From positions 1 through 53,839 of the forward strand of contig JAQTVQ010000004.1 of the NCBI GenBank assembly GCA_028706715.1: a stretch of 53,839 bases of DNA, in the 5' to 3' direction. Below the pieces are notes generated by a model that saw nothing but the letters and a program-made list of their open reading frames with translations, did not search any database and was not told the origin of the DNA. This document shows positions 12,262-53,839 of this stretch, one piece after another; the stretch's first letter is position 1, and the number at the start of each line of letters is the position of its first letter. The position numbers and the translations under genes are program-made. Source of the stretch: Minisyncoccota bacterium. Its GTDB lineage: Bacteria; Patescibacteriota; Minisyncoccia; Minisyncoccales; JAQTVQ01.

Positions 12262-13266
12262 ATGAAAATAGGAATTGATTTAGGAACAAAAAATTCGTTG
12301 GTTTTTTTGCCTAAGAAAGGAGTTGTTTTAGATGAGCCGTCAGTGATTGCCGTATCTCTTGAAGAAAATAGAATTTTAGCCGTAGGCAAAGAGGCCAAGG
12401 AAATGGTCGGCCGCACCCCGGACAGCATCCAAGTTTTCCGTCCCTTAAAGGACGGAGTGATTGCCGACCATCGCATTACACAGGCGATGTTAAGATATTT
12501 TATTAAAAAAGTCTGTGTCGGTTTTAGGCGCTTTATAAAGCCGGAGCTTCTAATCGGAGTTCCGGTCGGCATTACTTCAACCGAAAGGAGAGCGGTTATT
12601 GAAGCCGGCGTCTTGGCCGGAGCCAAAGAAGTATTTATTGCCAAAGAGCCTATTTTATCAGCTATCGGCGCGGGAATACCGATTAATTCCTGTTCCGGAC
12701 ATTTGATCTTGGATATGGGAGGGGGGACTTCCGAAGTGGCTGTAATTTCTTTGGGAGGCATTGTCTCCGGACGATCTATACGCATCGCAGGGGACGAACT
12801 TGATGAAGCGATTGCCCAATATATCAAGGATAAATACAATCTGGCAATAGGAGATCAATCGGCGGAAGAAGCAAAGATAAAGATCGGAACGGCTGTTGCC
12901 GAAAAAGATGCCCGGTTTTTAGAAATTCGCGGAAGAGACCTTATATTGGGGCTTCCAAAAACCATAAAAATTTCTTCCAATGAAGTTTGTGTTGCCATAG
13001 AAGAGCCTTTGATTGAGATTATCCAATGCGTAAAAGATGTCTTGAGAGAAACTCCGCCGGAGCTGGCCGCTGATATTATGAATACGGGAATGGTAATGGC
13101 CGGAGGAGGCGCTTTAATCCGCAATATTTCCACTTTAATCTCCCAGTCCATAGGGGTGCCTTGTTTTATCGCCGACGACTCTTTGCGCTGCGTTGCGAAA
13201 GGAGCGGGAATTATGCTTGATAACCTTGATTTTTACAAGCGGAGCGTAATGACGAAGAAGATATAG
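12262..13266 (+). CDS. mreB: Rod-shape/actin-like protein MreB (paralogue 1)
   Basis: IGIDLGTKNSLV, EPSVIAV, GRTPDSI, LDMGGGTSEVAVISLGGIV and MAGGGALIRN are the MreB phosphate and adenosine motifs. Confidence 0.9.
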   Translation: MKIGIDLGTKNSLVFLPKKGVVLDEPSVIAVSLEENRILAVGKEAKEMVGRTPDSIQVFRPLKDGVIADHRITQAMLRYFIKKVCVGFRRFIKPELLIGVPVGITSTERRAVIEAGVLAGAKEVFIAKEPILSAIGAGIPINSCSGHLILDMGGGTSEVAVISLGGIVSGRSIRIAGDELDEAIAQYIKDKYNLAIGDQSAEEAKIKIGTAVAEKDARFLEIRGRDLILGLPKTIKISSNEVCVAIEEPLIEIIQCVKDVLRETPPELAADIMNTGMVMAGGGALIRNISTLISQSIGVPCFIADDSLRCVAKGAGIMLDNLDFYKRSVMTKKI

Positions 13267-13287
13267 TTTTATTTATTTTTACAGATT

Positions 13288-14196
13288 ATGCTGATAGGCC
13301 TTCAAAAACAATGGCAGATTTTAAGAACAGCGGCAGAGAAAGATAAATTACCCCATGCTTTTTTATTTTCCGGACCGGACAAAGTCGGCAAAAAAACCCT
13401 TGCTTTAAATTTGGTAAAATTTATTTTTTGCCAAGGAGAGAAAGAGATGGAAGGTTTCTCTTGCGGAAAATGCCGAGCTTGCATTGATGTCGGCAAAAAA
13501 GCTCATCCTGATCTCGCGCTGATTGAACCAAAAGACGGCTCAATAAAGATATCGCAAATAAGAGATTTGGAGTGGAAGCTTTCATTAAAGCCTTATAGCG
13601 CCAAAATGAAAGCGGGAATTATTGACGATGCCCATCTTATGCTTCCGGACGCCCAAAACAGCTTGTTGAAAACATTGGAAGAACCGAGAGGGAAAGCTCT
13701 TTTGATTTTAATTTCTTCGGATCCTCAAAGGCTCTTGAAGACGGTTTTTTCAAGAGTTAGAACTATGAAATTTTTTTTGGCGCCGGATGCGGAGATAAAA
13801 GAAAAGCTTGCGAGTTTTGAGTCCGATTTTGAAAAAATAGAAAAAATTACAAATCTCTCCTTGGGAAGGCCCGGCCAGGCGATGGAATTTTTAAATGATC
13901 ATGAAAAATTTTCAGCTAGAGAAAAAAAATTGGAGGAGATTGAAAAAATTATGAAAGCCAAAATTCCGGAAAAATTCAAATATGCCAAAGAAATTGCGGA
14001 CAGCCCGGAGATTATTGAAGAAACTCTGGCTTTATGGGAAAGAAGAATAAGAGAAGAATTAATTTTATGCAAAGAATCTTCTTCTTGCTTGGTAAGGCCG
14101 CTTAGAGAACTGGAAGAAGCTTTGAGGTTGGTTAAAACGACCAATGCCAGTCCAAAATTGATTTTAGAGAATTTAATGTTAAATTTTAATATTTAA
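13288..14196 (+). CDS. holB: DNA polymerase III delta' subunit
   Basis: LPHAFLFSGPDKVGKKTLA (degenerate Walker A), zinc module CGKCRACIDV...HPD, and the SRVRTMKF sensor motif. Confidence 0.75.
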   Translation: MLIGLQKQWQILRTAAEKDKLPHAFLFSGPDKVGKKTLALNLVKFIFCQGEKEMEGFSCGKCRACIDVGKKAHPDLALIEPKDGSIKISQIRDLEWKLSLKPYSAKMKAGIIDDAHLMLPDAQNSLLKTLEEPRGKALLILISSDPQRLLKTVFSRVRTMKFFLAPDAEIKEKLASFESDFEKIEKITNLSLGRPGQAMEFLNDHEKFSAREKKLEEIEKIMKAKIPEKFKYAKEIADSPEIIEETLALWERRIREELILCKESSSCLVRPLRELEEALRLVKTTNASPKLILENLMLNFNI

Positions 14197-43086: not shown

Positions 43087-43157
43087 TGCGGGATCGTCTA
43101 ACGGTAGGACAACGCCCTCTGGAGGCGTCTATCTAGGTTCGAATCCTAGTCCCGCAG
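43087..43157 (+). tRNA. tRNA-Gln (anticodon CUG)
   Basis: U1:A72 acceptor TGCGGGA/TCCCGCA, anticodon arm ACGCC-CTCTGGA-GGCGT, T arm CTAGG-TTCGAAT-CCTAG. The last 5 nt belong to the island's inverted repeat. Confidence 0.9.
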
Positions 43158-44574
43158 CCGAATTGTTTAGTACAAACTCGTTTTGCTGGAAGGGCGGAAT
43201 TAAATCCGCTCTTTTGGTTAAAAAATTTTGCGCGCTCGGCGCGCCTTGTCGGGGGGAATGGCCGGAAGCTAAAACCGGTTGATTTTGAAGCAAAAACAGC
43301 GTTATTTTAATGCTTTCCTTGGCATAAACAATCTCTTTGAAAAATCTTTTAGCCAAAAGATTTTTCGCGATGCCGGTTCTTTTTCCAAGCTCGGCGTAAA
43401 CCGCTTTTAAGGTTGAAATAACCTTTTCGGCGGTGAGATCGTATGTTTTGGCCGAAGGTTCGTATCCAATGCGGTACCCGGAATTTTCTGCGTGATTTAT
43501 CCTGAAAACCAGATTTTCCACATATTCCTTGTCGTTGGAGATTCTTTCCAGATTTTCTAAAACATAGCGGTCGAGTCGGTCGGCGTTCACTTGTTTTGTT
43601 TCGCAGGATTGCCAATCGTTTTTTAGCGTTGAAGTACAGCGGTAATAATAATATCGCTTTTGGAATTTTCCATCTCTCGTTTTGTTGCTGTAAGATGGCG
43701 TCATTTTCGCTCCGCAATCCGCGCAATTTATAATTCCGCCGAAAAGGTGGTTTTTATAAATCCTGTTTTTATTCGTTTTTTTCTTGTGTGTTTGCTGGGC
43801 GCAGCCAAACACTTCTTGCGAAATAATCGGCTGGTGCAATCCGGGGTAAAATTCGCCTTTGTGGCTAATTTTACCGGTATATATTACATTCCTTAACATA
43901 TAGGCAATGGCGGTTTTGGTGAAAGGTTTTCCATTTCTGTTTTTCAAATTACTTTTTGCCAAATAGTTGTAAACTTTCGACAAAGAACCGGTTTCAACGT
44001 AATTTGAAAAAATTGACCTCACCGTTTCAGCCTCCTTTTTATTGATAAATATTTTTTTATCTTTTCTGGAATAACCGTAAGGCGCAAAACCGCCATTGCT
44101 CATTCCTTTTTTCGCCCGTTCCAGCATTTTGTCTTTTGTACGCTCGCTGGTTAGTTCGCGTTCAAATTGCGCAAAGGTAAGCATAATATTACGCAACAAA
44201 CGGCCGGCGGGCGTGGAAGTATCAAATCGTTCCGTAATAGAGATAAAATCAACGCCGAACCGATCAAAGGTTTCAATAAGCTCGTAAAAATCCTTAGGGG
44301 AGCGGGTAAGGCGGTCTATTTTATACGCCAAAACCAGATCAACTCTTCCTTCCTTGATGTCGTTTAACAACTCCTGCAACGCCGGGCGGTTTGTGTTCGC
44401 ACCGGTATATCCTGCGTCGGAATAAACTTTAAAAACGGAAAAATCATTTTGGCTTTCAACAAAATGCTTGATTTTTTCCTCTTGCGCTTCGCAAGAGGAA
44501 AATTCTTTTTCCGCTTGTATATCGGTAGAAACCCTGGTATAGACAGCGCACATTTTGAATTGAATATTCGCCAT
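43129..44574 (-). CDS. Large serine recombinase (resolvase/invertase N-domain + recombinase domain + zinc ribbon)
   Basis: Catalytic-Ser context CAVYTRVSTDIQ, YKIDRLTRS, and CADCGAKM...YYYYRC. The C-terminal tail is encoded by IR-L and the ORF runs into the tRNA-Gln 3' end. Confidence 0.85.
   Translation of the reverse strand: MANIQFKMCAVYTRVSTDIQAEKEFSSCEAQEEKIKHFVESQNDFSVFKVYSDAGYTGANTNRPALQELLNDIKEGRVDLVLAYKIDRLTRSPKDFYELIETFDRFGVDFISITERFDTSTPAGRLLRNIMLTFAQFERELTSERTKDKMLERAKKGMSNGGFAPYGYSRKDKKIFINKKEAETVRSIFSNYVETGSLSKVYNYLAKSNLKNRNGKPFTKTAIAYMLRNVIYTGKISHKGEFYPGLHQPIISQEVFGCAQQTHKKKTNKNRIYKNHLFGGIINCADCGAKMTPSYSNKTRDGKFQKRYYYYRCTSTLKNDWQSCETKQVNADRLDRYVLENLERISNDKEYVENLVFRINHAENSGYRIGYEPSAKTYDLTAEKVISTLKAVYAELGKRTGIAKNLLAKRFFKEIVYAKESIKITLFLLQNQPVLASGHSPRQGAPSAQNFLTKRADLIPPFQQNEFVLNNSAAGLGFEPR
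43153..43299. repeat. Left copy of a 147-bp inverted repeat (IR-L)
   Basis: The reverse complement of 43153-43299 matches 46696-46842 at 137/147 positions with no gaps (hand alignment). The outer end lies inside the tRNA-Gln acceptor stem. Confidence 0.9.
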
Positions 44575-44860: not shown

Positions 44861-46648
44861 ATGGAAACGAAATCTTGCAAATGCCAAAATTGCGGGCTAA
44901 CTTCAGAATCATTTTTTATCGCTGATGCTAAAAATTTTAGAAAAAATATCTCCCGTATAACCGAAGGCGAAATAGGCATTTGCAGTCTTTGCAACAATTG
45001 TTATTCTAAAAGAAAAGATTGTTTAGAGGCGATTATTAATACTGCGAAAGATAAAAAAATAATAGTGGCCGGACCCGGCACAGGAAAAACACATACATTT
45101 GGTGAACTTTTGAAGCAACTACCGGCAGAGGGAAGGGCTATCGTCTTCACTCTTATAAATAACTTGGTTTTTGATTTGAAAAAAGAATTAAGCTCTATCG
45201 GAAATAACAATATTAAAGCAACTACATTCCATGGATTTTGCAGGGAAATGCTTCACTCGAAAATTCATTTTAAGCCCGGTTTTGAATATTTCCCGAAATT
45301 AACGAAGTTGATTTGTGCGGATGCAGATTTATTGTCTTCTGGATTTTCAAAAGAAGACTTTGACAAAAGCTTTGCAAATTTAGATGAAAATAAGGCGATG
45401 GAGTTCTATTTAGAAAGAGCAGACTACTACAATTCCGCAAGCCATAATGATGCTGTTTTTAAAATTTATAATTTTTTAAAAGAAAATACCGAAGAAATTC
45501 CTGAATATGAAATAGCGATTGCCGACGAATACCAAGATTTTAATCTTCTTGAGTCTTCATTCATAAATCTTCTTGCAACTAAAAATAAAATCTTAATCGC
45601 AGGTGACGACGATCAAGCATTATATAAATTTAGATTTGCCGAAAAGAAATTTATAAGAGATTTAAGAAAAAACACTGACTTCCAATTTTTTCCATTGCCA
45701 TTTTGCAGTCGTTGTAGTCCGGTTTTGGTTGATGCAACCAATTATTTTGTAAAAAAGGCTCAAATGGATGGGTTACTTAAAGAAAGAATTCCAAGGGATT
45801 ATCTTTGTTATTGGCCGGATAAATATATTGAAAGTATAAATTATCCTAAAATCTTTGTTGCACATTGTTCTACCGCAAAGACGATGAATGAGTTTATTGT
45901 GGCTCGTATCCAAGAAATTAAACAGGCAGAATCTATTGATGGTACTGAAAAAGACATACAATTCCTTATTATAGGTCCAGAATCAGGGTACCATATAAAT
46001 AACTTAGCTGTTTGTTTAAAAGAAAAACTTGACGGAAGTATTTATGAAATTCAAACTGCCAAAGAAAAGGAAGCTCTGACGATAGATGAAGGCTATTCAA
46101 TTATCCAACGAGGCAATAATAATTTAGGATGGCGCATTGTCATGGAACTCGATCCAATAGATGGCCAAGCAGATATTATTAACAGATCTTATGAAGCTAA
46201 GGCGGGCCTTGAGGGTTTGCTTCCTGTGGAATATATTGAAAAACATCAAACATCAATATCTGGGAGAGCTGGCATCGCCGACGAAAATGTTTGTTTGTCT
46301 GAAGACGAACTTCCCGAAGAAAACAATAATCGGAAGATTAAGATTAGGATGACAAATTTTTACGGATCGAAAGGTCTCACCGCCCTACATGTTTTTGTAA
46401 TAGGGTTAAACAATAGAACTTTCCCAAAGAATCCTGACAATATCAAAGATGACGAAATATGCAAATTTATTGTTTCATTAACTAGGGCAAAAAAATCTTG
46501 TACGCTTGTTCCAAACAGAGAATATAACTATGAACTTCAAAGATCGGTTGACTCGCCATCGATTTTTATTGGCATGTTGCCTCAAGATAAACTACTAAAA
46601 CAAGAATATAGAATCAAAAAAGGGCAATTACAATTAGAGGGGCAGTAG
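44861..46648 (+). CDS. Short UvrD/Rep-like SF1 helicase-domain protein with an N-terminal Cys-rich (zinc-ribbon-like) segment
   Basis: CKCQNCG...CSLCNNC; motif I IIVAGPGTGKTHT; motif II IADEYQDFN; motif III LIAGDDDQALYKFRFA; motif VI YGSKGLTALHVFVIG; LTRAKKSC. Confidence 0.7.
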   Translation: METKSCKCQNCGLTSESFFIADAKNFRKNISRITEGEIGICSLCNNCYSKRKDCLEAIINTAKDKKIIVAGPGTGKTHTFGELLKQLPAEGRAIVFTLINNLVFDLKKELSSIGNNNIKATTFHGFCREMLHSKIHFKPGFEYFPKLTKLICADADLLSSGFSKEDFDKSFANLDENKAMEFYLERADYYNSASHNDAVFKIYNFLKENTEEIPEYEIAIADEYQDFNLLESSFINLLATKNKILIAGDDDQALYKFRFAEKKFIRDLRKNTDFQFFPLPFCSRCSPVLVDATNYFVKKAQMDGLLKERIPRDYLCYWPDKYIESINYPKIFVAHCSTAKTMNEFIVARIQEIKQAESIDGTEKDIQFLIIGPESGYHINNLAVCLKEKLDGSIYEIQTAKEKEALTIDEGYSIIQRGNNNLGWRIVMELDPIDGQADIINRSYEAKAGLEGLLPVEYIEKHQTSISGRAGIADENVCLSEDELPEENNNRKIKIRMTNFYGSKGLTALHVFVIGLNNRTFPKNPDNIKDDEICKFIVSLTRAKKSCTLVPNREYNYELQRSVDSPSIFIGMLPQDKLLKQEYRIKKGQLQLEGQ

Positions 46649-46695
46649 GAAATTTCCTGTTTTATTAGGGATATTTAATCAAATATTAAAACGGC

Positions 46696-46842
46696 CTGTT
46701 TTTGCTTCAAAATCAACCAGTTTTAGTTTCCGACCATTCCCCCCGACAAGGCGCGCCACGCGCGCAAAATTTTTTAACCAAAAGAGCGGATTTGATTCCG
46801 CCCTTGCGACAAAACGAGTTTGTATTAAACAATTCGGCTGCG
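46696..46842. repeat. Right copy of the 147-bp inverted repeat (IR-R)
   Basis: See IR-L. Similarity stops exactly after ...caattcggctgcg (46842). Confidence 0.9.
46696..46842 (+). pseudogene. Orphan 3'-terminal fragment equivalent to the serine recombinase tail
   Basis: ORF 46702-46923 begins LQNQPVLVSDHSPRQGAPRAQNFLTKRADLIPPLRQNEFVLNNSAA. The recombinase tail reads LQNQPVLASGHSPRQGAPSAQNFLTKRADLIPPFQQNEFVLNNSAA. No recombinase body lies upstream of the fragment. Confidence 0.7.
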
Positions 46843-46924
46843 CATTCCGATAATCTGCAAACTTTGACTATTGTTTTGCCAAATACAATCCATCAGTCAA
46901 AAGAGAGGGTTTTGCAGGATTAAT

Positions 46925-47042
46925 CTGCCCCCGACTGAGCGTCGCTTGCCCTTCCGAACTGCGGTTCTCCAGGGCGGCGCTCGCAAAGGGGCAGCCGGGC
47001 TCGAATTGGGCTCAGGCCAACGCATTTTAGCCGCAGGTGGGG
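46925..47042. other. GC-rich, strongly self-complementary non-coding segment (candidate structured RNA or recombination site)
   Basis: Nested helices: ctgcccc (46925-46931) with ggggcag (46988-46994); gagcgtcgc (46937-46945) with gcggcgctc (46974-46982); gaac-tgcg-gttc (46956-46967). There is also a possible long-range pair, ctgcgg (46959-46964) with ccgcag (47031-47036). Confidence 0.4.
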
Positions 47043-47082
47043 GTAAAAAGGGGAATTTAAAAATATATAAAATAATATAAAT

Positions 47083-47100
47083 CGAAGCCAGCAGGCTTCG
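47083..47100. terminator. Isolated hairpin cgaagcc-agca-ggcttcg upstream of dcm
   Basis: A 7-bp perfect stem with a 4-nt loop and an A/T-rich flank, but no clean T-run. Confidence 0.3.
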
Positions 47101-47183
47101 CGAAATTTTAAAAAATTTTAAATTGAAAAAAGTCGGCAAAAAGAGTAAATTCAATACATAAAGATAGGGTTTTAAAAATCAAA

Positions 47184-48164
47184 ATGCCCGTTAATTCAAA
47201 CAAAAAGAAACTGACTTTTATCGACCTTTTCGCAGGAATAGGCGGTATTAGGTTAGGCTTTGAATCGGCAGGCTTCGAATCAGTTTTCGCAAATGATTTT
47301 GATCCAAAGGCTTCAGAAACATATAAGGCAAATTTTGGCGATTCAATAGATACCTCTAATATAAAAGACGTTATAAAGGATGGCATGGGTAAAATTCCTA
47401 AAAAATTTGATGTTTTAGCCGCCGGGTTCCCGTGCCAGCCTTTCTCAATAGCGGGCCATAGGTTAGGATTTGCCGATAAGGAGAGGGGCAATTTGCTCTT
47501 CGCTGTTATTGAAATTTTAAGAACAAGAAAACCCAAAGCTGTTTTTTTGGAAAACGTCAAAAATTTGCAGAAACACGATGATGAAAAAACATACAAAAGG
47601 ATAGAAGAAGAAATGCGCGGAGCAGGATATACCATAAAAGCAGAGGTTCTTAACAGCATGCATTACGGGAACGTACCTCAAGCGAGGGAAAGAATTTATA
47701 TCGTTGGTTTTCAAACGCCGCGCGCTTTGATGAAATTTCATTTTCCCGAGAGCCAGCTTTTGACTAAAAGCGTTTTAGGATTGCTCGAAAAATCAGTAGA
47801 CGAGAGATTTTATTACAACGAAGAAGACGAATTCATTTATCCGAAGCTTAAAAAGGATGTTAAGTCGAGGGAAAGAGTATACCAATATAGAAGAATATAT
47901 GTCAGAGAAAATAAAAATGGAGTTTGCCCAACTCTTACAGCCAGTATGGGAATGGGCGGGCATAATGTTCCGATCATCAAAGACCATAAGGGAATAAGGA
48001 AGCTAACTATGCGAGAATGCGCCCGCTTGCAGGGATTTCCCGAATCATTTATATTGCCTTCGCATCTTTCGGATACGTCAATCTATAAACAGATCGGCAA
48101 TTCAGTAACAGTTCCGGTTATAGCCAAAATAGCCGAAAATATCCGGGTAGCATTAGAGTCGTAA
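47184..48164 (+). CDS. dcm: DNA (cytosine-5)-methyltransferase
   Basis: Motif I FIDLFAGIGGIRLGFE, motif IV GFPCQPFSIAG, motif VI FLENVKNL, motif VIII QARERIYIVGF, motif IX RKLTMRECARLQGFP, motif X QIGNSVTVPV. Confidence 0.9.
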   Translation: MPVNSNKKKLTFIDLFAGIGGIRLGFESAGFESVFANDFDPKASETYKANFGDSIDTSNIKDVIKDGMGKIPKKFDVLAAGFPCQPFSIAGHRLGFADKERGNLLFAVIEILRTRKPKAVFLENVKNLQKHDDEKTYKRIEEEMRGAGYTIKAEVLNSMHYGNVPQARERIYIVGFQTPRALMKFHFPESQLLTKSVLGLLEKSVDERFYYNEEDEFIYPKLKKDVKSRERVYQYRRIYVRENKNGVCPTLTASMGMGGHNVPIIKDHKGIRKLTMRECARLQGFPESFILPSHLSDTSIYKQIGNSVTVPVIAKIAENIRVALES

Positions 48165-48171
48165 TAAAAAA

Positions 48172-48579
48172 ATGGCAGATGTTTTTTCGAAGAAAAAGCG
48201 CAGTGAAATAATGTCAAAGATCCGCAGCAAAGATACGGGCATAGAAAAAATTGTTTTTGCCTATCTTAGAAAAAATAATATTTATTTCCAAAAACATTAT
48301 TCAAAGATTCCCGGGAAGCCGGATATTGCCTTGCCTTCCCAAAAGAAGGCAGTTTTTATAAACGGAGATTTCTGGCACGGCTACCGGTTCGGCGATTGGA
48401 AGGATAGATTGCCAAAGGATTATTGGAAAAATAAAATTGCAGGCAACATCAAGCGGGACGCAAAAAATTATAGGCTTCTGAGAAGAAAGGGATGGAGGAT
48501 ATTAAAGGTATGGAGCCATCGCCTAAAAAAGTCGCCGGTTGCAGAGTGCCAAAAAATAGCTGATTTCCTTAAAAAATAG
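48172..48579 (+). CDS. vsr: Very-short-patch repair endonuclease
   Basis: KKKRSEIMSKIRSKDTGIEK, GKPDIALPSQKKAVFINGDFWHG and KVWSH are Vsr family blocks. It starts 7 nt after dcm. Confidence 0.85.
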   Translation: MADVFSKKKRSEIMSKIRSKDTGIEKIVFAYLRKNNIYFQKHYSKIPGKPDIALPSQKKAVFINGDFWHGYRFGDWKDRLPKDYWKNKIAGNIKRDAKNYRLLRRKGWRILKVWSHRLKKSPVAECQKIADFLKK

Positions 48580-48597
48580 GATTATATTGCATAGGTA

Positions 48598-48628
48598 TTG
48601 ACAATAATGTAAATGTGGAATACATTTA
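48598..48628 (+). promoter_or_regulatory. Candidate promoter with an overlapping inverted-repeat operator
   Basis: TTGACA (48598-48603), a 17-nt spacer, then TACATT (48621-48626). A perfect 7-bp inverted repeat, TAAATGT-ggaat-ACATTTA (48610-48628), spans the spacer and the -10 element. Confidence 0.45.
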
Positions 48629-48655
48629 TATTTAAAGTTATCTAATTGTATTTTT

Positions 48656-48874
48656 ATGGAAAACAAGCGCAGAGAAAATTTTAAACGCCTTGCCGAAGCA
48701 AGAACCAATCAGGTTTTAAAAAAGCTGAAGGTTCTTGGCAATTGCTCGAATAGAAGCTCTTATGATTACACAGAGGAAGAGGTCAATAAAATATTTTCCG
48801 AAGTGGAAAAGAAAATCCGAGAGGTGAAAGCTAAATTTACTTTTCCCAACAGACAGAAAGAATTTAAACTGTAA
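48656..48874 (+). CDS. 72-aa basic helical protein, first gene of the operon (unknown; possible regulator)
   Basis: The ORF ends 6 nt before the next gene. It reads MENKRRENFKRLAEARTNQVLKKLKVLGNCSN... and shows no recognisable HTH. Confidence 0.5.
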   Translation: MENKRRENFKRLAEARTNQVLKKLKVLGNCSNRSSYDYTEEEVNKIFSEVEKKIREVKAKFTFPNRQKEFKL

Positions 48875-48880
48875 ATACTT

Positions 48881-50770
48881 ATGGCAATATTTTCAAGAAT
48901 TAAACCAAAAACTAAAGCTGAACCAGAAAATTCTTTAACATGGTATTTCCCAAGTACTGATCACTGTTCGGTAGATGGTTTTGCTGATTCGCAATTAGAG
49001 TATTTTCAGGGAAATCACGAAAAATACATAGCAAGAGAAGCGATACAAAATGCCGTAGACGCCCGTAGCAACAGCGAAAGGCCAGTAATTATTATTTTTG
49101 AAAAGTTCGATCTTTTAGTCTCTCAAATTCCGGGATGGCAAATGTTGTTAGATAGGTGCAAAAGATGCCTTGATTTTGACAAAGGGCAAGAAAAATCAGA
49201 AATTTTTTTTCGCAATGCAATAGAATTATTAAAAAGCGAAACAGTTTCGGTATTAAAGATAAGCGATTACAATACCATTGGCCTTTCGGGACAAGATGAC
49301 GACCGTAGCGGTGGCTGGTATCGGTTAGTTCGAGCCGATGGAGTTAGTTCTCCCAAAGGAGTAAGTGGAGGTTCTTTCGGAATAGGGAAAGGAGCTCCCA
49401 TCGCTGCTTCGCAGCTGAGAACTGTTTTTTATTCCAGTATTAACGATAAAAATGAGCCGGTATTCCAAGGCAAGGCCCGCCTCGTAAGCCATTATGGCGA
49501 GGATGATGATGTTAAGCGCGGGATCGGATTCTACGGCATTGACGGATACCGTTCAATAAGAGACGCAAAGCTTATACCTGATATTTTCGAAAGGAAAGAG
49601 CGTGGAACGGATATTTTCATTATTGGGTATGATGCGGGCGAAAAATGGAAGGAAAAATTAATTGAATCCGTAATGGAAAATTCTTGGCTTGCAATTTACG
49701 ATGGCGATCTCGAAGTAATTATTCGCGACGGCGATGAAAAAATTATAAATAAAAATAACCTCAAGGATTATTTTTCTAATTACGAAACAGGCGAATCAGC
49801 TTTTTTCTACGAAGCTAGAACGAATTGGACTCAGAAATTTGAAAAAGAATTAAAACATCTTGGGTCGGTTGCGCTTTTTGTTAAGAAACATGATTGCTAT
49901 CCCGGGGAGGTCATGATGGTGCGCAAACCAAAAATGCTAGTGGAAACAAAAGCCTATAGGGCGCTTAGGGAGCCATACGCAGGAGTTTTTATATGCGACA
50001 ACGATAAGGGCAATTTTATGTTAAGAGATTTAGAAATTCCAACTCACGATAAATGGGATAGAGATCGGGCAAAAAATGGATGGGCGGCGATGGGCGAGCT
50101 GGATTTGTTTATTAAAGAATCTCTGAAAAGCATGGGGCAAACATCCAGCAACGAGCCGCAAGACATTCCGGGATTAGATCGCTATCTTCCAGATAGCGAC
50201 GATAGGGATTATCTGTCCGAATCGGAAGAGATGCCAACGCAACCGACCGAATCTGCAGAAAATGAAGAATCAGGCAGGGAAATCGGAGCAGTCAAAGAAC
50301 CTACCTCTGAGGAAGTTGAGGGCATATTAAGAAAAGTTAATGTAAAAAGCCCATCGATTGGAAGCGGTTCACTGCCCGGTGGCGGAGAATCGAACAAGAC
50401 AACCGGCGGCGATAATGAGGGCACTGGCAGTGGAGATGAAGAAGGAGACCGCCAAGGGAAACGGATTAGGACGGCAGATGTTAGCTTCAGAAGTTTTGTC
50501 CAAAAAACGAAACATGGAATTGAATACCATTTTGCTATTTTGGGCCGCGAAGAATGCGACGGTTCGATCAGAATAGTGGCAGTCGGCGATGACGGAAATT
50601 ATTCAGTCGATTTGGCAAATGCCAAGGATGTAGATTCCCAAAAAGAATTGGAAATTAGCGGAGCATTTATTAAAGGATTATCAATCAGAAAAGGCAAAAC
50701 TGTCCGTCTTTCGGTCAGCTTAAAGTCGAGAAAAAAATACTCATTAGCAATAGAAAACTATGAAGGTTAA
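48881..50770 (+). CDS. GHKL-superfamily (MORC/Hsp90/sacsin-like Bergerat-fold) ATPase-domain protein
   Basis: N-box AREAIQNAVDA (aa 51-61), G1 ISDYNTIGLSG (aa 127-137), G2 GGSFGIGKGA (aa 163-172). An acidic Gly/Ser-rich linker spans about aa 425-525, and a roughly 100-aa C-terminal domain follows. Confidence 0.65.
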   Translation: MAIFSRIKPKTKAEPENSLTWYFPSTDHCSVDGFADSQLEYFQGNHEKYIAREAIQNAVDARSNSERPVIIIFEKFDLLVSQIPGWQMLLDRCKRCLDFDKGQEKSEIFFRNAIELLKSETVSVLKISDYNTIGLSGQDDDRSGGWYRLVRADGVSSPKGVSGGSFGIGKGAPIAASQLRTVFYSSINDKNEPVFQGKARLVSHYGEDDDVKRGIGFYGIDGYRSIRDAKLIPDIFERKERGTDIFIIGYDAGEKWKEKLIESVMENSWLAIYDGDLEVIIRDGDEKIINKNNLKDYFSNYETGESAFFYEARTNWTQKFEKELKHLGSVALFVKKHDCYPGEVMMVRKPKMLVETKAYRALREPYAGVFICDNDKGNFMLRDLEIPTHDKWDRDRAKNGWAAMGELDLFIKESLKSMGQTSSNEPQDIPGLDRYLPDSDDRDYLSESEEMPTQPTESAENEESGREIGAVKEPTSEEVEGILRKVNVKSPSIGSGSLPGGGESNKTTGGDNEGTGSGDEEGDRQGKRIRTADVSFRSFVQKTKHGIEYHFAILGREECDGSIRIVAVGDDGNYSVDLANAKDVDSQKELEISGAFIKGLSIRKGKTVRLSVSLKSRKKYSLAIENYEG

Positions 50771-51605
50771 TACTAAATCATATCCTCATCCGGTATTGGG
50801 CAACGGAGACGACATCCAAGGATCATTTAAGGCGGCTTTTACCTACGAGTTGGGTAGAAATAATATTGTCTTAAACCCGGTATTTACGCTTGAAAATAAA
50901 ACTATTGATGGCCTTATTAAAAAGGGAAAAGCAGCTTTTGTTACTGAAGCAGAGTGCCGCAATACTTTTTTTAGAGCCAGCTTTTCATCGAACAACCCGG
51001 CGGAAAAATTTACTATTCCCGCAAGAATTTTGCGGGAGCGCGTTTCAGTAGGTTTTTATATTTGCGCTAACGAAGACATCAAAAATTATAAACCGGACGG
51101 ATGCCATACCGACTATGAAGGCACTTCGTTTGAGATTGATAAGGGAGATGTTCTTGCCGTCGGCGGAAGCTGTGATTTTATAGCCGCGAAAAATTTTGAT
51201 CCGTTGCGTCCGCCCGTTTCTTCTTTTATGTCGATAAGAGAAGGGCGCTTTCATGAAGGGCCGATTGAAATTGATTATACTTCGGATAAAATTACTATTG
51301 AGCTTTCAAAATCAGACTGGCAGAATTACGGAAACATCAGGAGCCAAAAAGTTGCCGAAGGCGCTTTGCACGCTTCAGTGGTTCTCCCGGTTTTAGTAGA
51401 CGCAATTTATAAGGTGCAAAACGAAAGCTCCGAGTATGGCGACCAAAATTGGTTTGGAAGATTGGATGCCATACTTGACTCAAAAAGCTTAAAGAAAAGA
51501 GAGCCCTTTGAAGCTGCGCAAAAAATTCTTGATAATCCGTCCGCAAGGAATTTTCAAAGCATAAATTCTATGCTTGGATTCAATTCGGCAGAAGACAATG
51601 GCTAA
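50760..51605 (+). CDS. Unassigned 281-aa protein
   Basis: Its start overlaps the upstream stop (ATGAAGGTTAA). The N-terminus is KSYPHPVLGNGDDIQGSF. I can assign no catalytic motif. Confidence 0.55.
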   Translation: MKVNTKSYPHPVLGNGDDIQGSFKAAFTYELGRNNIVLNPVFTLENKTIDGLIKKGKAAFVTEAECRNTFFRASFSSNNPAEKFTIPARILRERVSVGFYICANEDIKNYKPDGCHTDYEGTSFEIDKGDVLAVGGSCDFIAAKNFDPLRPPVSSFMSIREGRFHEGPIEIDYTSDKITIELSKSDWQNYGNIRSQKVAEGALHASVVLPVLVDAIYKVQNESSEYGDQNWFGRLDAILDSKSLKKREPFEAAQKILDNPSARNFQSINSMLGFNSAEDNG

Positions 51606-52404
51606 AAAACAATTCCAAAAAATATTTAGAGGGGCAGCTGTAGACCGATTGCGTTCTGAATTGAGATCGGGAGATTCATTACAACAGTATTATGATGCAG
51701 ATTTTTCTACACAAGAAAAAGAGCTTTTGCAATCTACCATAGAAGTAGGCGATAAGCCGCCAGCATTAAAGACGCCAAAGGAGGACATAGTTTCCGCAGA
51801 TCTTGAGAATGCAATCATGCTTCACGGTTATTATAAGGATATCGACGAAACGCAGGCGTCTGATCCTCGTTTTTGGGCGTATCTTAGCCATGTTCAATTC
51901 AGAGGCTATGCTTTAGCTCGCTGGGGTATGCCTGAAAAATATAGGAACGTAACAAACGACGCGGAGAAGAAAAAAGCGATAAATCAAATATTCGATCATT
52001 GGTTTGTAGATAAAAATGACCGCGACTTAAGGCGCCATGCGCTTGCCCGTTTGTGGTGGGCGGCATATTTAACTTATGCGCCTTGGGAAAGAGAGCCTGA
52101 ATTTTTTTCTGATTTTAAGAAAGAAGACCCCTACTACTACACGAAAGTCATGCTTTCAACGCAGGATATATTCCAGCAGGTTTTGGAGCGTTCGATGGGC
52201 CGTTCTAACAGAATATTAATTTCGATACTCGATTATTTAGACAAAAATAAGGAATTTGCTGCTTCCAGGGACAACATAAGAGACTTAATAAAAGAATTGA
52301 ATCTTGTTTATGGAACGAAAAAAATTATTACCCTCAGCAGAGAATCTATGTTTGACTTAATAGACCAAACGGCGACTGAAATAAAAAAAGGAGAGGTAAT
52401 TTAG
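51598..52404 (+). CDS. Unassigned ~269-aa protein (Trp/Arg-rich helical)
   Basis: ATG 51598 overlaps the upstream stop (ATGGCTAA); an alternative ATG lies at 51574. Blocks: ASDPRFWAYLSHVQFRGYALARW and RHALARLWWAAYLTY. Confidence 0.55.
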   Translation: MAKKQFQKIFRGAAVDRLRSELRSGDSLQQYYDADFSTQEKELLQSTIEVGDKPPALKTPKEDIVSADLENAIMLHGYYKDIDETQASDPRFWAYLSHVQFRGYALARWGMPEKYRNVTNDAEKKKAINQIFDHWFVDKNDRDLRRHALARLWWAAYLTYAPWEREPEFFSDFKKEDPYYYTKVMLSTQDIFQQVLERSMGRSNRILISILDYLDKNKEFAASRDNIRDLIKELNLVYGTKKIITLSRESMFDLIDQTATEIKKGEVI

Positions 52405-52417
52405 TAATTTAAGCAGT

Positions 52418-52822
52418 ATGGAAAATAAGCAAAAACATCTTGAGTTTATTCAGAACATTATTGGCAGAATGGCAGGTAATTTATTTTTCTTAAGGGGTTG
52501 GTCGATAACATTAATCGCGGCACTGCTTGCACTAATTGCCAAAGGGGGGAGCTCTAACTATATTATTTATTTTCTCATTGTCCTTACTTTGGTTTTTTGG
52601 ATTTTAGACGGCTATTTTCTTTCTCAGGAGCGTTTATTCAGGAATCTATACGATCATGTGAGAAAATTGAAAGAAGATGAAATAGATTTTTCAATGGATA
52701 CAAACGAATATAAAAAATACAAGAAAAATACCGTAATATATGCGATGTTTTCGTCTACTCTTTTGACTTTTTATTTGCCCTTAATCATCGTTGCGCTGTT
52801 AATCGCTTATTTAATGAAATAA
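52418..52822 (+). CDS. Small multi-pass (3-4 TM) membrane protein
   Basis: HLEFIQNIIGRMAGNLFFLRGWSITLIAALLALIA, IIYFLIVLTLVFWILDGYF and LLTFYLPLIIVALLIAYL. Confidence 0.55.
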   Translation: MENKQKHLEFIQNIIGRMAGNLFFLRGWSITLIAALLALIAKGGSSNYIIYFLIVLTLVFWILDGYFLSQERLFRNLYDHVRKLKEDEIDFSMDTNEYKKYKKNTVIYAMFSSTLLTFYLPLIIVALLIAYLMK

Positions 52823-52835
52823 ATACAAATTTATT

Positions 52836-53522
52836 ATGCCAAGAAAAATCTTTGTTAGCTATAAATATGGCGATTCAAAGGTTCTGCACATTCCTAGATA
52901 TGGAGAATACGATCCTACAACAGCAAGGCATTATGTTGACGTATTGCAAGCGCACTTGGCCGCTAACGATCATATAAACAAAGGCGAAGCCGATGGAGAG
53001 GATATGAGCGGATTTAAGGATGAAACAATTGCCTCTAATTTGAGGGATAAAATTTATGATAGCTCCACTACTTTGGTTTTAATCTCAAAAAACATGAAGG
53101 ACAACTCTGTGCCGGAGGAGGATCAATGGATACCTTGGGAAGTGGCATATTCACTACGAGAGAAAACAAGAGAAGATAGGTCGAGTAGAACTAATGCTAT
53201 GTTGGCGGTAGTTATTCCAGACGAAAATGGGAGTTACGAATATTTTGTTCAGCCGATAGGATGTGCTCATTGTGGCGGTATCAGATGGAAACAAGACACA
53301 TTATTTCAAGTTCTTGGAAAAAACATGTTTAATAAAAAACAACCGCAAACGACAGTATGCCCGACTGGTATATGCGGTGTACTCCACACCGGCAACGATC
53401 ACTCCTACATCCATCCCGTCAGGTGGGATCATTTCATAACAGACATCAACTTCTACCTCGATCATGCAACAAGATTGAACGAGAATATTAATAACTATAA
53501 TCTTGTAAAAGTTGTAAATTAG
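52836..53522 (+). CDS. TIR-like (DUF1863/ThsB-like) domain protein
   Basis: Begins RKIFVSYKYGDS. Central block TLVLISKNM...QWIPWEVAYSL. The C-terminal half contains CAHCGG...CPTGICG. Confidence 0.55.
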   Translation: MPRKIFVSYKYGDSKVLHIPRYGEYDPTTARHYVDVLQAHLAANDHINKGEADGEDMSGFKDETIASNLRDKIYDSSTTLVLISKNMKDNSVPEEDQWIPWEVAYSLREKTREDRSSRTNAMLAVVIPDENGSYEYFVQPIGCAHCGGIRWKQDTLFQVLGKNMFNKKQPQTTVCPTGICGVLHTGNDHSYIHPVRWDHFITDINFYLDHATRLNENINNYNLVKVVN

Positions 53523-53527
53523 TAATT

Positions 53528-53728
53528 ATGGCGACGAAACGACAAGTTTTTTATAGTTTCCATTATAAACCCGACTGTTGGCGTGCCGCCCAAGTAAGGA
53601 ATATCGGCGCCATTGAAGGAAATAAGGCAGCCCCAGATAATGATTGGGAGACAATTGCCAGTAAGGGTGAAGAGTCAATCAAAAAATGGATAGATGATCA
53701 GATGCAATATCGATCTTGTTTTGCTTAA
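53528..53728 (+). pseudogene. 3'-truncated second TIR-like (DUF1863-type) gene
   Basis: RQVFYSFHYKPDCWRAAQVRNIG...KKWIDDQMQ is a typical N-terminal third of the family. After about 53706 the frame runs into recombinase-derived DNA and stops (YRSCFA*). Confidence 0.6.
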
Positions 53729-53839
53729 TATCGTTCATCAATTCCTGTAAAGCCGGGCGGTCGGTATTTGCGCCGGTGTAGCCGCCGTCAGAATAAACCT
53801 TAAAAATGCCGAAATCGTTTTGGCTTTCAATGAAATATT
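53706..53839 (-). pseudogene. Fragment of a second large serine recombinase gene (N-terminal part; continues beyond the window; 3' part missing)
   Basis: The minus strand reads YFIESQNDFGIFKVYSDGGYTGANTDRPALQELMNDIKQNKIDI. The first recombinase reads HFVESQNDFSVFKVYSDAGYTGANTNRPALQELLNDIKEGRVDL. Similarity ends near 53706 and the frame stops at 53679-53681. Confidence 0.7.

Follow-up and report, generated by a model that had tools for sequence, protein, structure and literature searches.

The GHKL+S5 paraMORC families were previously linked to cytosine methylases and Vsr, and their operons were predicted to be restriction-modification (R-M) systems (Iyer, Abhiman & Aravind 2008, PMC2292703). 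The same study described paraMORC2 by an ExxxH that is strongly conserved in the C-terminal portion of S5 and paraMORC4 by a fused or neighbouring TIR domain, and it noted a functional MutL-Vsr interaction together with the similarity of the paraMORC proteins to MutL. Experiments have validated the Shedu-type paraMORC3/VcSduA as a defence nuclease under GHKL control (PMC12137116). In the preprint of Payne et al. (bioRxiv 10.1101/2024.01.29.577857), phage defence candidates (PDCs) were collected by a guilt-by-embedding screen; PDC-M33 is cassette CAS_00129, with three families and a table count of 98, and PDC-M50 is a two-family cassette. In type II Thoeris, a ThsB TIR protein is paired with a macrodomain-transmembrane ThsA that binds His-ADPR (bioRxiv 10.64898/2026.06.04.730250). 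Here, a contig of a Minisyncoccota bacterium (JAQTVQ010000004.1; the whole stretch of 53,839 nucleotides (nt) is called the window) was analysed, in which genes for a cytosine methyltransferase and Vsr precede a run of seven open reading frames (ORFs) containing a GHKL ATPase and TIR proteins.

Our preferred interpretation, with a probability of roughly 0.55, is that this stretch holds two independent anti-phage modules, of which Module 1 (47184-52404) would be R-M-like and paraMORC-type and Module 2 (52418-53728) Thoeris-like. All of their genes lie on the forward strand. Module 1 starts with dcm, encoding a C5-cytosine DNA methyltransferase of 326 amino acids (aa) (47184-48164; Pfam DNA_methylase 2.9e-87, TIGR00675 2.2e-92), and the gene of the Vsr T:G mismatch endonuclease (135 aa, 48172-48579; Pfam Vsr 1.5e-21, TIGR00632 9.3e-29, above cutoff). 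A promoter with an overlapping palindrome, a probable operator, follows at 48598-48628, and then the genes of four proteins named s72 (72 aa, 48656-48874), A (629 aa, 48881-50770), B (281 aa, 50760-51605) and C (268 aa from the ATG at 51598, 51598-52404). Module 2 consists of genes for a small membrane protein, named TM (transmembrane; 134 aa, 52418-52822), and a TIR protein, TIR1 (228 aa, 52836-53522), and of a second TIR gene of which only the N-terminal 66 residues are left (53528-53728). What was observed, and what this interpretation builds on, is the gene content, the synteny, the predicted folds of A and B, the conservation of regulatory DNA and the setting in a defence island. The first proposal that the genes are co-oriented and of defence type is supported. 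A defence role is suggested by this setting and, by analogy, by the one validated relative of the class, paraMORC3/VcSduA.

A profile scan for homologues of A, with one genome per species, gave 62 loci (L numbers denote these relatives). They span Patescibacteria, Gamma- and Alphaproteobacteria, Omnitrophota, Bacteroidota, Planctomycetota, Elusimicrobiota, Deinococcus, Clostridia, Lentisphaera and others. The ORFs of all 62 were clustered, and the 38 loci with enough flank are called well-flanked. The recurring families were A (61 of the 62 loci), C (51), B and dcm (46 each), s72 (38) and vsr (26); the seventh most frequent family, a large serine recombinase, was found in 8. Over the counting methods, dcm adjoins A-B-C in 38-46 of the 62 loci, vsr is present in 26-31, and homologues of s72 stand directly upstream of A in 38-42. 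Either dcm or vsr was present in 31 of the 38 well-flanked loci, and TM and TIR1 of the window type in none.

The placement of dcm and vsr varies: they lie upstream on the same strand in close relatives and downstream on the opposite strand in many Bacteroidota, and vsr comes directly after C in L028, L029, L039, L044, L073 and L077. The tightest linkage was seen in an IMG/VR viral contig (L073, 4761-9939), with the order s72-dcm-A-B-C-vsr and dcm thus between s72 and A. Loci whose A is more identical to that of the window also have a dcm more identical to the window's (Spearman 0.82, p 3e-10, n=38). The closest solved relative of the window's Dcm is M.HhaI (1.7e-54, full length). In the 10 loci checked, there was no restriction enzyme among the outer neighbours of dcm/vsr, which were pseudouridine synthase, peptidase, sigma factors, halogenase and others. 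Six loci from Clostridia and Lentisphaera (L048-L054) carry a ~920-1020-aa protein directly upstream of s72, in the place of dcm-vsr; its only recognisable domain is a sigma-70 region-4 helix-turn-helix (HTH). The cassette often lies beside large serine recombinases, and it was also found on plasmids and in 8 viral or prophage contigs.

Because of this recurrence, linkage and variety of positions across loci, the conserved module is dcm-(vsr)-s72-A-B-C. The earlier note had taken the genes from the promoter onward as a unit separate from dcm-vsr, and its left boundary cuts the module in two: dcm and vsr are the most constant companions of the trio and in some loci lie inside the operon or just downstream of it. 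The trio A-B-C does recur in unrelated genomes, as the note had proposed to check, and the unit conserved with it includes dcm-(vsr)-s72 and excludes TM and TIR.

The trio corresponds to an existing catalogue entry. In PADLOC-DB v2, residues 20-628 of A match PDC-M33A (8.2e-139), residues 1-272 of B match PDC-M33B (1.1e-62) and residues 44-270 of C match PDC-M33C (5.8e-37), so that three contiguous same-strand genes match the three profiles in order. The gene combination had been said to match no named system, a claim that the earlier note would give up if profile searches assigned the trio to one, and for which it counted the lack of a known system in PADLOC as support. The profiles do assign the trio to PDC-M33, as well as TM to PDC-M50A, both of these being candidates. 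The locus is thus a further member of a catalogued, uncharacterised candidate family. A literature search found no paper text that mentions PDC-M33, PDC-M50 or DUF6339.

A was modelled with AlphaFold2 at a mean predicted local distance difference test score (pLDDT) of 75. Foldseek against the PDB matched the model to the N and M domains of Hsp90/GRP94, Topo VI-B, the SMCHD1 ATPase module, MORC3/4 and the 43K fragments of GyrB/ParE, with E 1e-8 to 1e-5, a probability of 1.0 and 400-550 columns that cover both the ATPase and the transducer domain. In the model, the GHKL and transducer part (~20-420) is followed by a disordered acidic linker (421-525) and a small beta C-terminal domain (534-624), the two elements that had been predicted to follow the ATPase. 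The motifs quoted for a GHKL ATPase were found at the residues given for them: the N-box AREAIQNAVDA at residues 51-61 (nt 49031-49063), G1 ISDYNTIGLSG at 127-137 and G2 GGSFGIGKGA at 163-172. Across 51 full-length homologues these positions vary little or not at all, and the homologues share as invariant residues E53/N57/D60, D129/N131/G134/G137, G163-K170 and R348, and also a loop at the end of the transducer, E385-x-P387-x-H389-x-x-W392. With N-box (ExxxNxxD), G1 (DxxxG), G2 (GxxGxG) and transducer all present, the predicted structure confirmed that A belongs to the GHKL ATPase superfamily. Searches of Pfam, NCBIfam and PDB sequences, including one with a 34-sequence profile, did not recognise A, and Pfam gave no match in the ATPase region at E<=10 for the full protein or for residues 1-260, HATPase_c and HATPase_c_3 included. 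A Runt-like DNA-binding identity of the C-terminal domain was sub-threshold (Pfam E 0.002, 18 bits against a cutoff of 27; PDB E ~1) and is kept as a hint only.

The AlphaFold2 model of B (mean pLDDT 86) shows two beta-sandwich domains and a C-terminal helical bundle. Its Foldseek matches were weak and FnIII/cytokine-receptor-like (E ~1e-3; PDB, BFVD). The comparison of predicted structures suggested earlier thus led to the GHKL fold for A and to a generic beta-sandwich for B. B was considered as the missing nuclease and rejected, since its confident model contains no nuclease fold and its neighbours in PDB and BFVD are generic FnIII-like proteins. No curated Pfam or NCBIfam family exists for s72, A or B, and the 72-aa and 281-aa proteins are as hard to place as the earlier note had said. 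C, which it could not place either, does match a Pfam family, though only a domain of unknown function, DUF6339 (1.1e-40).

DUF6339 comprises 1358 clusters at 50% identity (E<=1e-3), nearly all of stand-alone proteins of ~250 aa. Across diverse homologues, the invariant residues of C are W93, R108 and W153 only. Single-sequence and profile searches of C against solved structures gave no significant match, and matches to SUZ12 and histone H4 (E 0.007-1) were disregarded as low-complexity helical. An assignment of C as a HEPN RNase through R142-x4-H147 was rejected, for H147 is not kept in distant homologues. Rare members of the family carry C-terminal fusions, one kind to an NgoFVII B3-like DNA-binding domain (5.7e-16) and another to a DnaA C-terminal HTH (1.9e-25); the DnaA fusions may be gene-calling artefacts. 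The fusion proteins are P0459 and P0276, P0298 and P0302. In the NgoFVII-like fusion, the DUF6339 part occupies the position of the catalytic domain. Since relatives are fused to two different double-stranded-DNA-binding domains, C is placed on DNA. No phage family in PHROGs matched s72, A, B or C.

The cassette has regulatory DNA of its own. TTGACA (48598-48603), a 17-nt spacer and TACATT (48621-48626) form a promoter with 10 of 12 consensus matches, and the palindrome TAAATGT-N5-ACATTTA (48610-48628) overlaps it. By its letters alone this promoter is unremarkable, with 22 promoter-like sites found in the window region against 18 expected. In 19 close loci, TTGAC[ATC] was found within 110 nt upstream of s72 in 17, at 9.9 per kilobase (kb) against a background of 0.61/kb (~16x), and ATGTA[AG] half-sites in 12, at 7.9 against 0.73/kb (~11x). 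Palindromes longer than the window's and of the same sequence type precede s72 in L009 (TGTAAATAT-N5-ATATTTACA) and L016 (GTAAATATG-N3-CATATTTAC). The promoter and probable operator that had been read at 48598-48628 are present, and their position is conserved in orthologous loci. In s72 the residues F9, A13, R16, N32, Y36 and F61 are invariant. Pfam, PADLOC, PHROG and PDB gave no significant match to it, and matches to designed proteins in the structure search were disregarded as low-complexity helical. s72, which always heads the cassette, would be either a controller or a small subunit.

We infer each step of the mechanism, including that the cassette restricts DNA at all. In Module 1, Dcm would mark the host's own DNA and Vsr would repair the T:G mismatches that arise from deamination of 5-methylcytosine (m5C), while the products of s72-A-B-C would act on unmarked incoming DNA. 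A may dimerise into a clamp or motor on DNA that is driven by ATP, in the manner of MutL, MORC and Topo VI-B. B would be a scaffold, and C would be the subunit that contacts DNA and is the best candidate for the catalytic part. s72 could be a repressor that binds the operator and holds back the toxic half for a time, like the controller proteins of classical R-M operons, or could be a small subunit. In Module 2, a Thoeris-like abortive-infection pair, the ThsB-type TIR protein would presumably make a nucleotide signal on infection and the small membrane protein would presumably be the effector; the second TIR gene was probably destroyed by rearrangement.

Several findings weigh against the R-M-like reading of Module 1. 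In 7 of the 38 well-flanked loci (a plasmid-like Deinococcus locus, five Clostridia/Lentisphaera loci and one other), A-B-C has neither dcm nor vsr in its flanks, and on conjugative plasmids of Lactococcus lactis (one copy at NZ_CP102523 10342-13967) it has no dcm but stands next to AbiGI/GII and to an R-M system of AlwI type whose methylases are N6-adenine, so the methylase is not obligatory for A-B-C. An Arthrobacter plasmid carries dcm-vsr with its own annotated type II restriction enzyme, beside s72-A-B-C and Shedu. The dcm partners fall in different subfamilies, with 23-28% identity in Bacteroidota, and this does not sit easily with a restriction component whose sequence specificity is fixed. 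s72 matched neither an HTH nor any other family of DNA-binding proteins, and no nuclease or other effector domain was found in A and B by fold or in C by sequence profile only. All 145 PDCs, hence PDC-M33 and PDC-M50, are stated to be untested (10.1101/2024.01.29.577857).

Some of these findings fit a different arrangement, in which s72-A-B-C (PDC-M33) is a self-sufficient defence system and dcm-vsr are frequent neighbours, either orphan or the remnant of a separate R-M system in the island. The loci of Deinococcus, Clostridia/Lentisphaera and the Lactococcus plasmids without dcm/vsr, the Arthrobacter dcm-vsr with a type II enzyme of its own, the cassette's own promoter and the attachment of non-orthologous dcm genes in different lineages all speak for it, as does the definition of PDC-M33 by three families only (10.1101/2024.01.29.577857). 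We regard it as possible but rather unlikely, given that 31 of 38 loci from many phyla have dcm or vsr in varied arrangements, even inside the operon, that no other partner for dcm was seen in the 10 loci checked, and that the divergence of dcm tracks that of A (rho 0.82).

A bolder form of the preferred reading is that dcm(-vsr)-s72-A-B-C is methylation-guided immunity of a new class, without a conventional nuclease, in which the MORC-like GHKL clamp, B and the DUF6339 protein recognise DNA without the host's m5C and inactivate it, either by a catalytic fold of DUF6339 that is new or without nucleolysis, by entrapping or compacting the DNA in an ATP-driven way. This we consider improbable. 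If it were true, the cassette would be the prokaryotic counterpart of the eukaryotic MORC/SMCHD1-DNA-methylation silencing axis.

The linkage to dcm and vsr could also point to DNA-methylation housekeeping on a mobile element, where a MutL-like A, with B and C, would aid Vsr short-patch repair or read m5C. MutL stimulates Vsr in E. coli. The published MutL-Vsr interaction and paraMORC-MutL similarity (PMC2292703) would agree with such a role, as would the many hosts that are reduced-genome Patescibacteria. Against this, about half of the loci lack vsr and some have neither dcm nor vsr; plasmids, viral contigs and islands flanked by recombinases carry the cassette beside CBASS, DarTG, Shedu, AbiG and R-M; and toxic components are typically placed under a tightly regulated promoter of their own with an operator. 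Housekeeping is accordingly a very unlikely account of the cassette.

Downstream of C, the distal genes were found to be what had been predicted, a small membrane protein and TIR proteins. TM, with about three hydrophobic helices by eye, matches PADLOC PDC-M50A (1.9e-47) and phrog_19896 (1.2e-35), and both TIR ORFs match Pfam ThsB_TIR. TIR1 matches PADLOC ThsB1 (PDLC00428, 1.7e-78) and ThsB_TIR (7.5e-6), and it is a close homologue of PDB 9vyl, 'Putative cyclic ADP-D-ribose synthase TIR1' (full value 3.1e-68, E 3e-68 when rounded); its candidate catalytic site is W101-E102. The seventh ORF, of PDC-M50B/ThsB type, has partial PADLOC matches: about the first 63 positions of the ThsB/PDC-M50B profile (2-63/164), and positions 2-67/162 of PDC-M50B (8.7e-25). 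Full-length proteins of its type have ~160 aa, and it ends at 53728, abutting a serine-recombinase fragment on the opposite strand. Of PDC-M50, therefore, M50A is matched by TM and M50B by the truncated 66-aa ORF alone, and the intact neighbour is a ThsB1-type TIR. The TM+TIR pair stands alone, without A-B-C, on plasmids of Vibrio, Klebsiella and Terribacillus, and the TM gene was found in 130 plasmid records. On the Vibrio plasmid, the TIR partner gene beside the TM homologue is 53% identical to TIR1. The pair is also represented by PHROG families.

The seven same-strand ORFs (48656-53728) are packed as the earlier note had described, 5-13 nt apart or overlapping, with intergenic distances of 6, -11, -8, 13, 13 and 5 nt in order. 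The A-B overlap runs through ATGAAGGTTAA (50760/50770) and the B-C overlap through ATGGCTAA (51598/51605). All seven ORFs are present, the seventh being a 66-aa TIR fragment and not a whole gene. Terminator-like sites were not predicted within the run, and because C and TM are 13 nt apart without a predicted terminator between them, the two modules are probably co-transcribed in this genome. The 20 nt that precede the start codons at five positions (48636-48655, 48861-48880, 52398-52417, 52816-52835 and 53508-53527) are AT-rich, and no Shine-Dalgarno-like (SD) GGAGG was seen by eye in these five stretches. The tight coupling of the run may depend on non-SD initiation in this host.

The earlier note had taken the run as a single seven-gene system. 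In such a system, infection would be sensed by the GHKL trio, with the TIR and membrane proteins as its abortive-infection effectors, which would supply the missing effector. The short gap after C and the missing terminator fit such a system, and so do the trio's lack of a recognisable effector and the TIR domain fused to or neighbouring paraMORC4 (PMC2292703). TIR and TM genes stand after C in the window, unrelated TIR and TM genes do so in L068 and L069, and a TM homologue does so in L010; since TIR+TM cargo thus recurs behind C in three close relatives, a small probability is kept for a functional link.

The comparison of loci does not agree with one system. TM or TIR1 homologues were found in 0 of the 38 well-flanked loci, and TM/TIR homologues follow C in 1 other of the 62; the pair occurs on its own on plasmids; and what follows C varies. 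In about half of the loci no operonic gene follows C, and in others a complete, unrelated system does, namely CBASS, DarTG or Shedu. The cargo in relatives includes a type I CBASS (1TM effector 9e-60, cyclase 2e-191), DarT/DarG, and DUF6119 with DUF2130. In L068, the closest relative, which occupies the same chromosomal site as the window (after RF-ftsE-ftsX) and whose A is 81% identical, a non-homologous ThsB_TIR protein (140 aa) and a 226-aa multi-pass membrane protein begin 10 nt after C (12538-13647). The DNA of the window is 84% identical to that of L068 from 46860 to 52334 and then diverges, and a loss of identity at the end of C is expected at a cargo junction. Cargo was seen at L068 12538-13647, L005 5785-7615 and L047 3929-6060, on the same strand and with gaps of ~10-150 nt. 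The slot after C is a hot spot for interchangeable two-gene abortive-infection or toxin cargo, and the single-system explanation has little probability left.

The surroundings are those of an island. A large serine recombinase (43129-44574) overlaps tRNA-Gln (43087-43159) with its 3' end by ~30 nt, which fits integration of an island into a tRNA gene; a tRNA-linked island with recombinases and an adjacent methyltransferase had been noticed before, and these elements are confirmed. On plasmids, the neighbours of the cassette are Shedu, AbiG and an AlwI R-M system. At 46696-46842 (+), 147 nt repeat in inverted orientation the 3' end of the gene of the intact recombinase (43153-43299, -; 93% nt, 90% aa), and at 53706-53837 (-) an N-terminal recombinase fragment (residues 37-80, 73% aa identity). 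These two stretches are remnants of a second large serine recombinase, and together they bracket the segment from dcm to TIR. Both the second TIR gene and the recombinase fragment are truncated, and they meet tail to tail at 53700-53730, with the TIR frame reading '...WIDDQMQY|RSCFA*' and the recombinase frame '...KQNKIDI|ASDHLSIF*'. The junction could be a scar of deletion or inversion, or an assembly junction. At 44861-46648 (+) lies a UvrD/GajB-like superfamily 1 (SF1) helicase of 595 aa, with an N-terminal Cys-rich region (CxCxxC...CxxCxxC) and without a GajA partner, which may be a separate defence gene. It was considered as a paraMORC-associated helicase and rejected, as its family was found in only one other locus (L047).

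The cassette is widespread, A-B-C occurring in at least 8 phyla, on plasmids of dairy lactococci and on viral contigs. If it is R-M-like, with a GHKL ATPase and no recognisable nuclease, methylation-based immunity would gain a further mechanistic type. Such a cassette would then also offer an experimental handle on the function of paraMORC ATPases, a question open since 2008 that bears on how eukaryotic MORC proteins arose. The analysis also corrects which unit should be cloned: the segment 48598-53522 mixes two systems and omits the probable self-protection genes, and such a mixed unit without dcm-vsr could give toxicity or uninterpretable phenotypes.

Compared with the known systems, Module 1 shares with the MORC/paraMORC operons, above all those of paraMORC2, the GHKL and S5/transducer domains, the neighbourhood of cytosine methylase and Vsr, and lateral mobility. 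The E385...H389 of A resembles the ExxxH of paraMORC2, the comparison being with its published description only. The operons of MORC and paraMORC are reported to have superfamily 2 (SF2) helicases and recognisable restriction endonuclease (RE)-fold, HNH or TIR nucleases, none of which is conserved in the window's cassette; its partners are s72, the beta-sandwich protein and DUF6339 instead. It had been remarked before that the helicase and nuclease partners of MORC-type R-M modules are not evident here, which holds as far as A and B contain no nuclease fold, but does not set the locus apart from the paraMORC class. By profile, A falls outside the MORC family proper, whose S5 domain is described with a GhXhhpXXRhl motif (PMC2292703): A has no match to the MORC-type GHKL profile (HATPase_c_3) at E<=10. 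In VcSduA, anti-phage activity depends on the GHKL ATPase, which presumably gates the effector on DNA; A likewise has the GHKL domain, but lacks the fused PD-(D/E)xK nuclease (DUF4263) of VcSduA. Mza (Gao et al. 2020) reportedly combines a MutL-like ATPase with Z1 and AIPR; in PADLOC, the window proteins matched no Mza or Shedu model.

Among methylation-based systems, a classical type II R-M system also has the methyltransferase, but the locus departs from it in that no nuclease fold was found in A or B, C had no match in the PDB by sequence, and no restriction-enzyme gene was seen beside dcm-vsr in the 10 loci checked. In controller-regulated R-M operons, the downstream unit is under its own control and begins with a small conserved gene. 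The window's cassette shares with them the small first gene and the conserved palindrome that overlaps the promoter, whereas their first gene encodes a small HTH regulator that binds palindromic C-boxes in its own promoter and s72 has no HTH or DNA-binding match. In BREX, a methyltransferase marks self and a multi-protein ATPase complex without a recognisable nuclease blocks unmarked DNA. The proteins of BREX are unrelated, with no PglX, PglZ or BrxC match in the window by PADLOC, and its methylase is of the N6-adenine type, while that of the window is C5-cytosine and comes with Vsr.

Module 2 shares with Thoeris and PDC-M50 a ThsB-type TIR beside a membrane protein. ThsB profiles are matched (1.7e-78), and no ThsA, SIR2 or SLOG was found among the proteins in 44861-53728; this sets it apart from type I Thoeris and bears out the earlier remark that Thoeris would need a ThsA-type partner. 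As to type II, the 134-aa TM protein has no Macro match. Compared with ThsA, it is only 134 aa long and without a Macro, SIR2 or SLOG ligand-binding domain, and the second TIR is truncated.

PDC-M33 has the same three proteins in the same order, with full-length matches, and both it and the window's trio stand among other defence genes. The entry gives three genes and states no function, fold or partner. To it, the present analysis adds that the cassette is linked to dcm and vsr and has a fourth gene (s72) and a conserved operator, which folds A and B have, and that C has fusions to DNA-binding domains in relatives.

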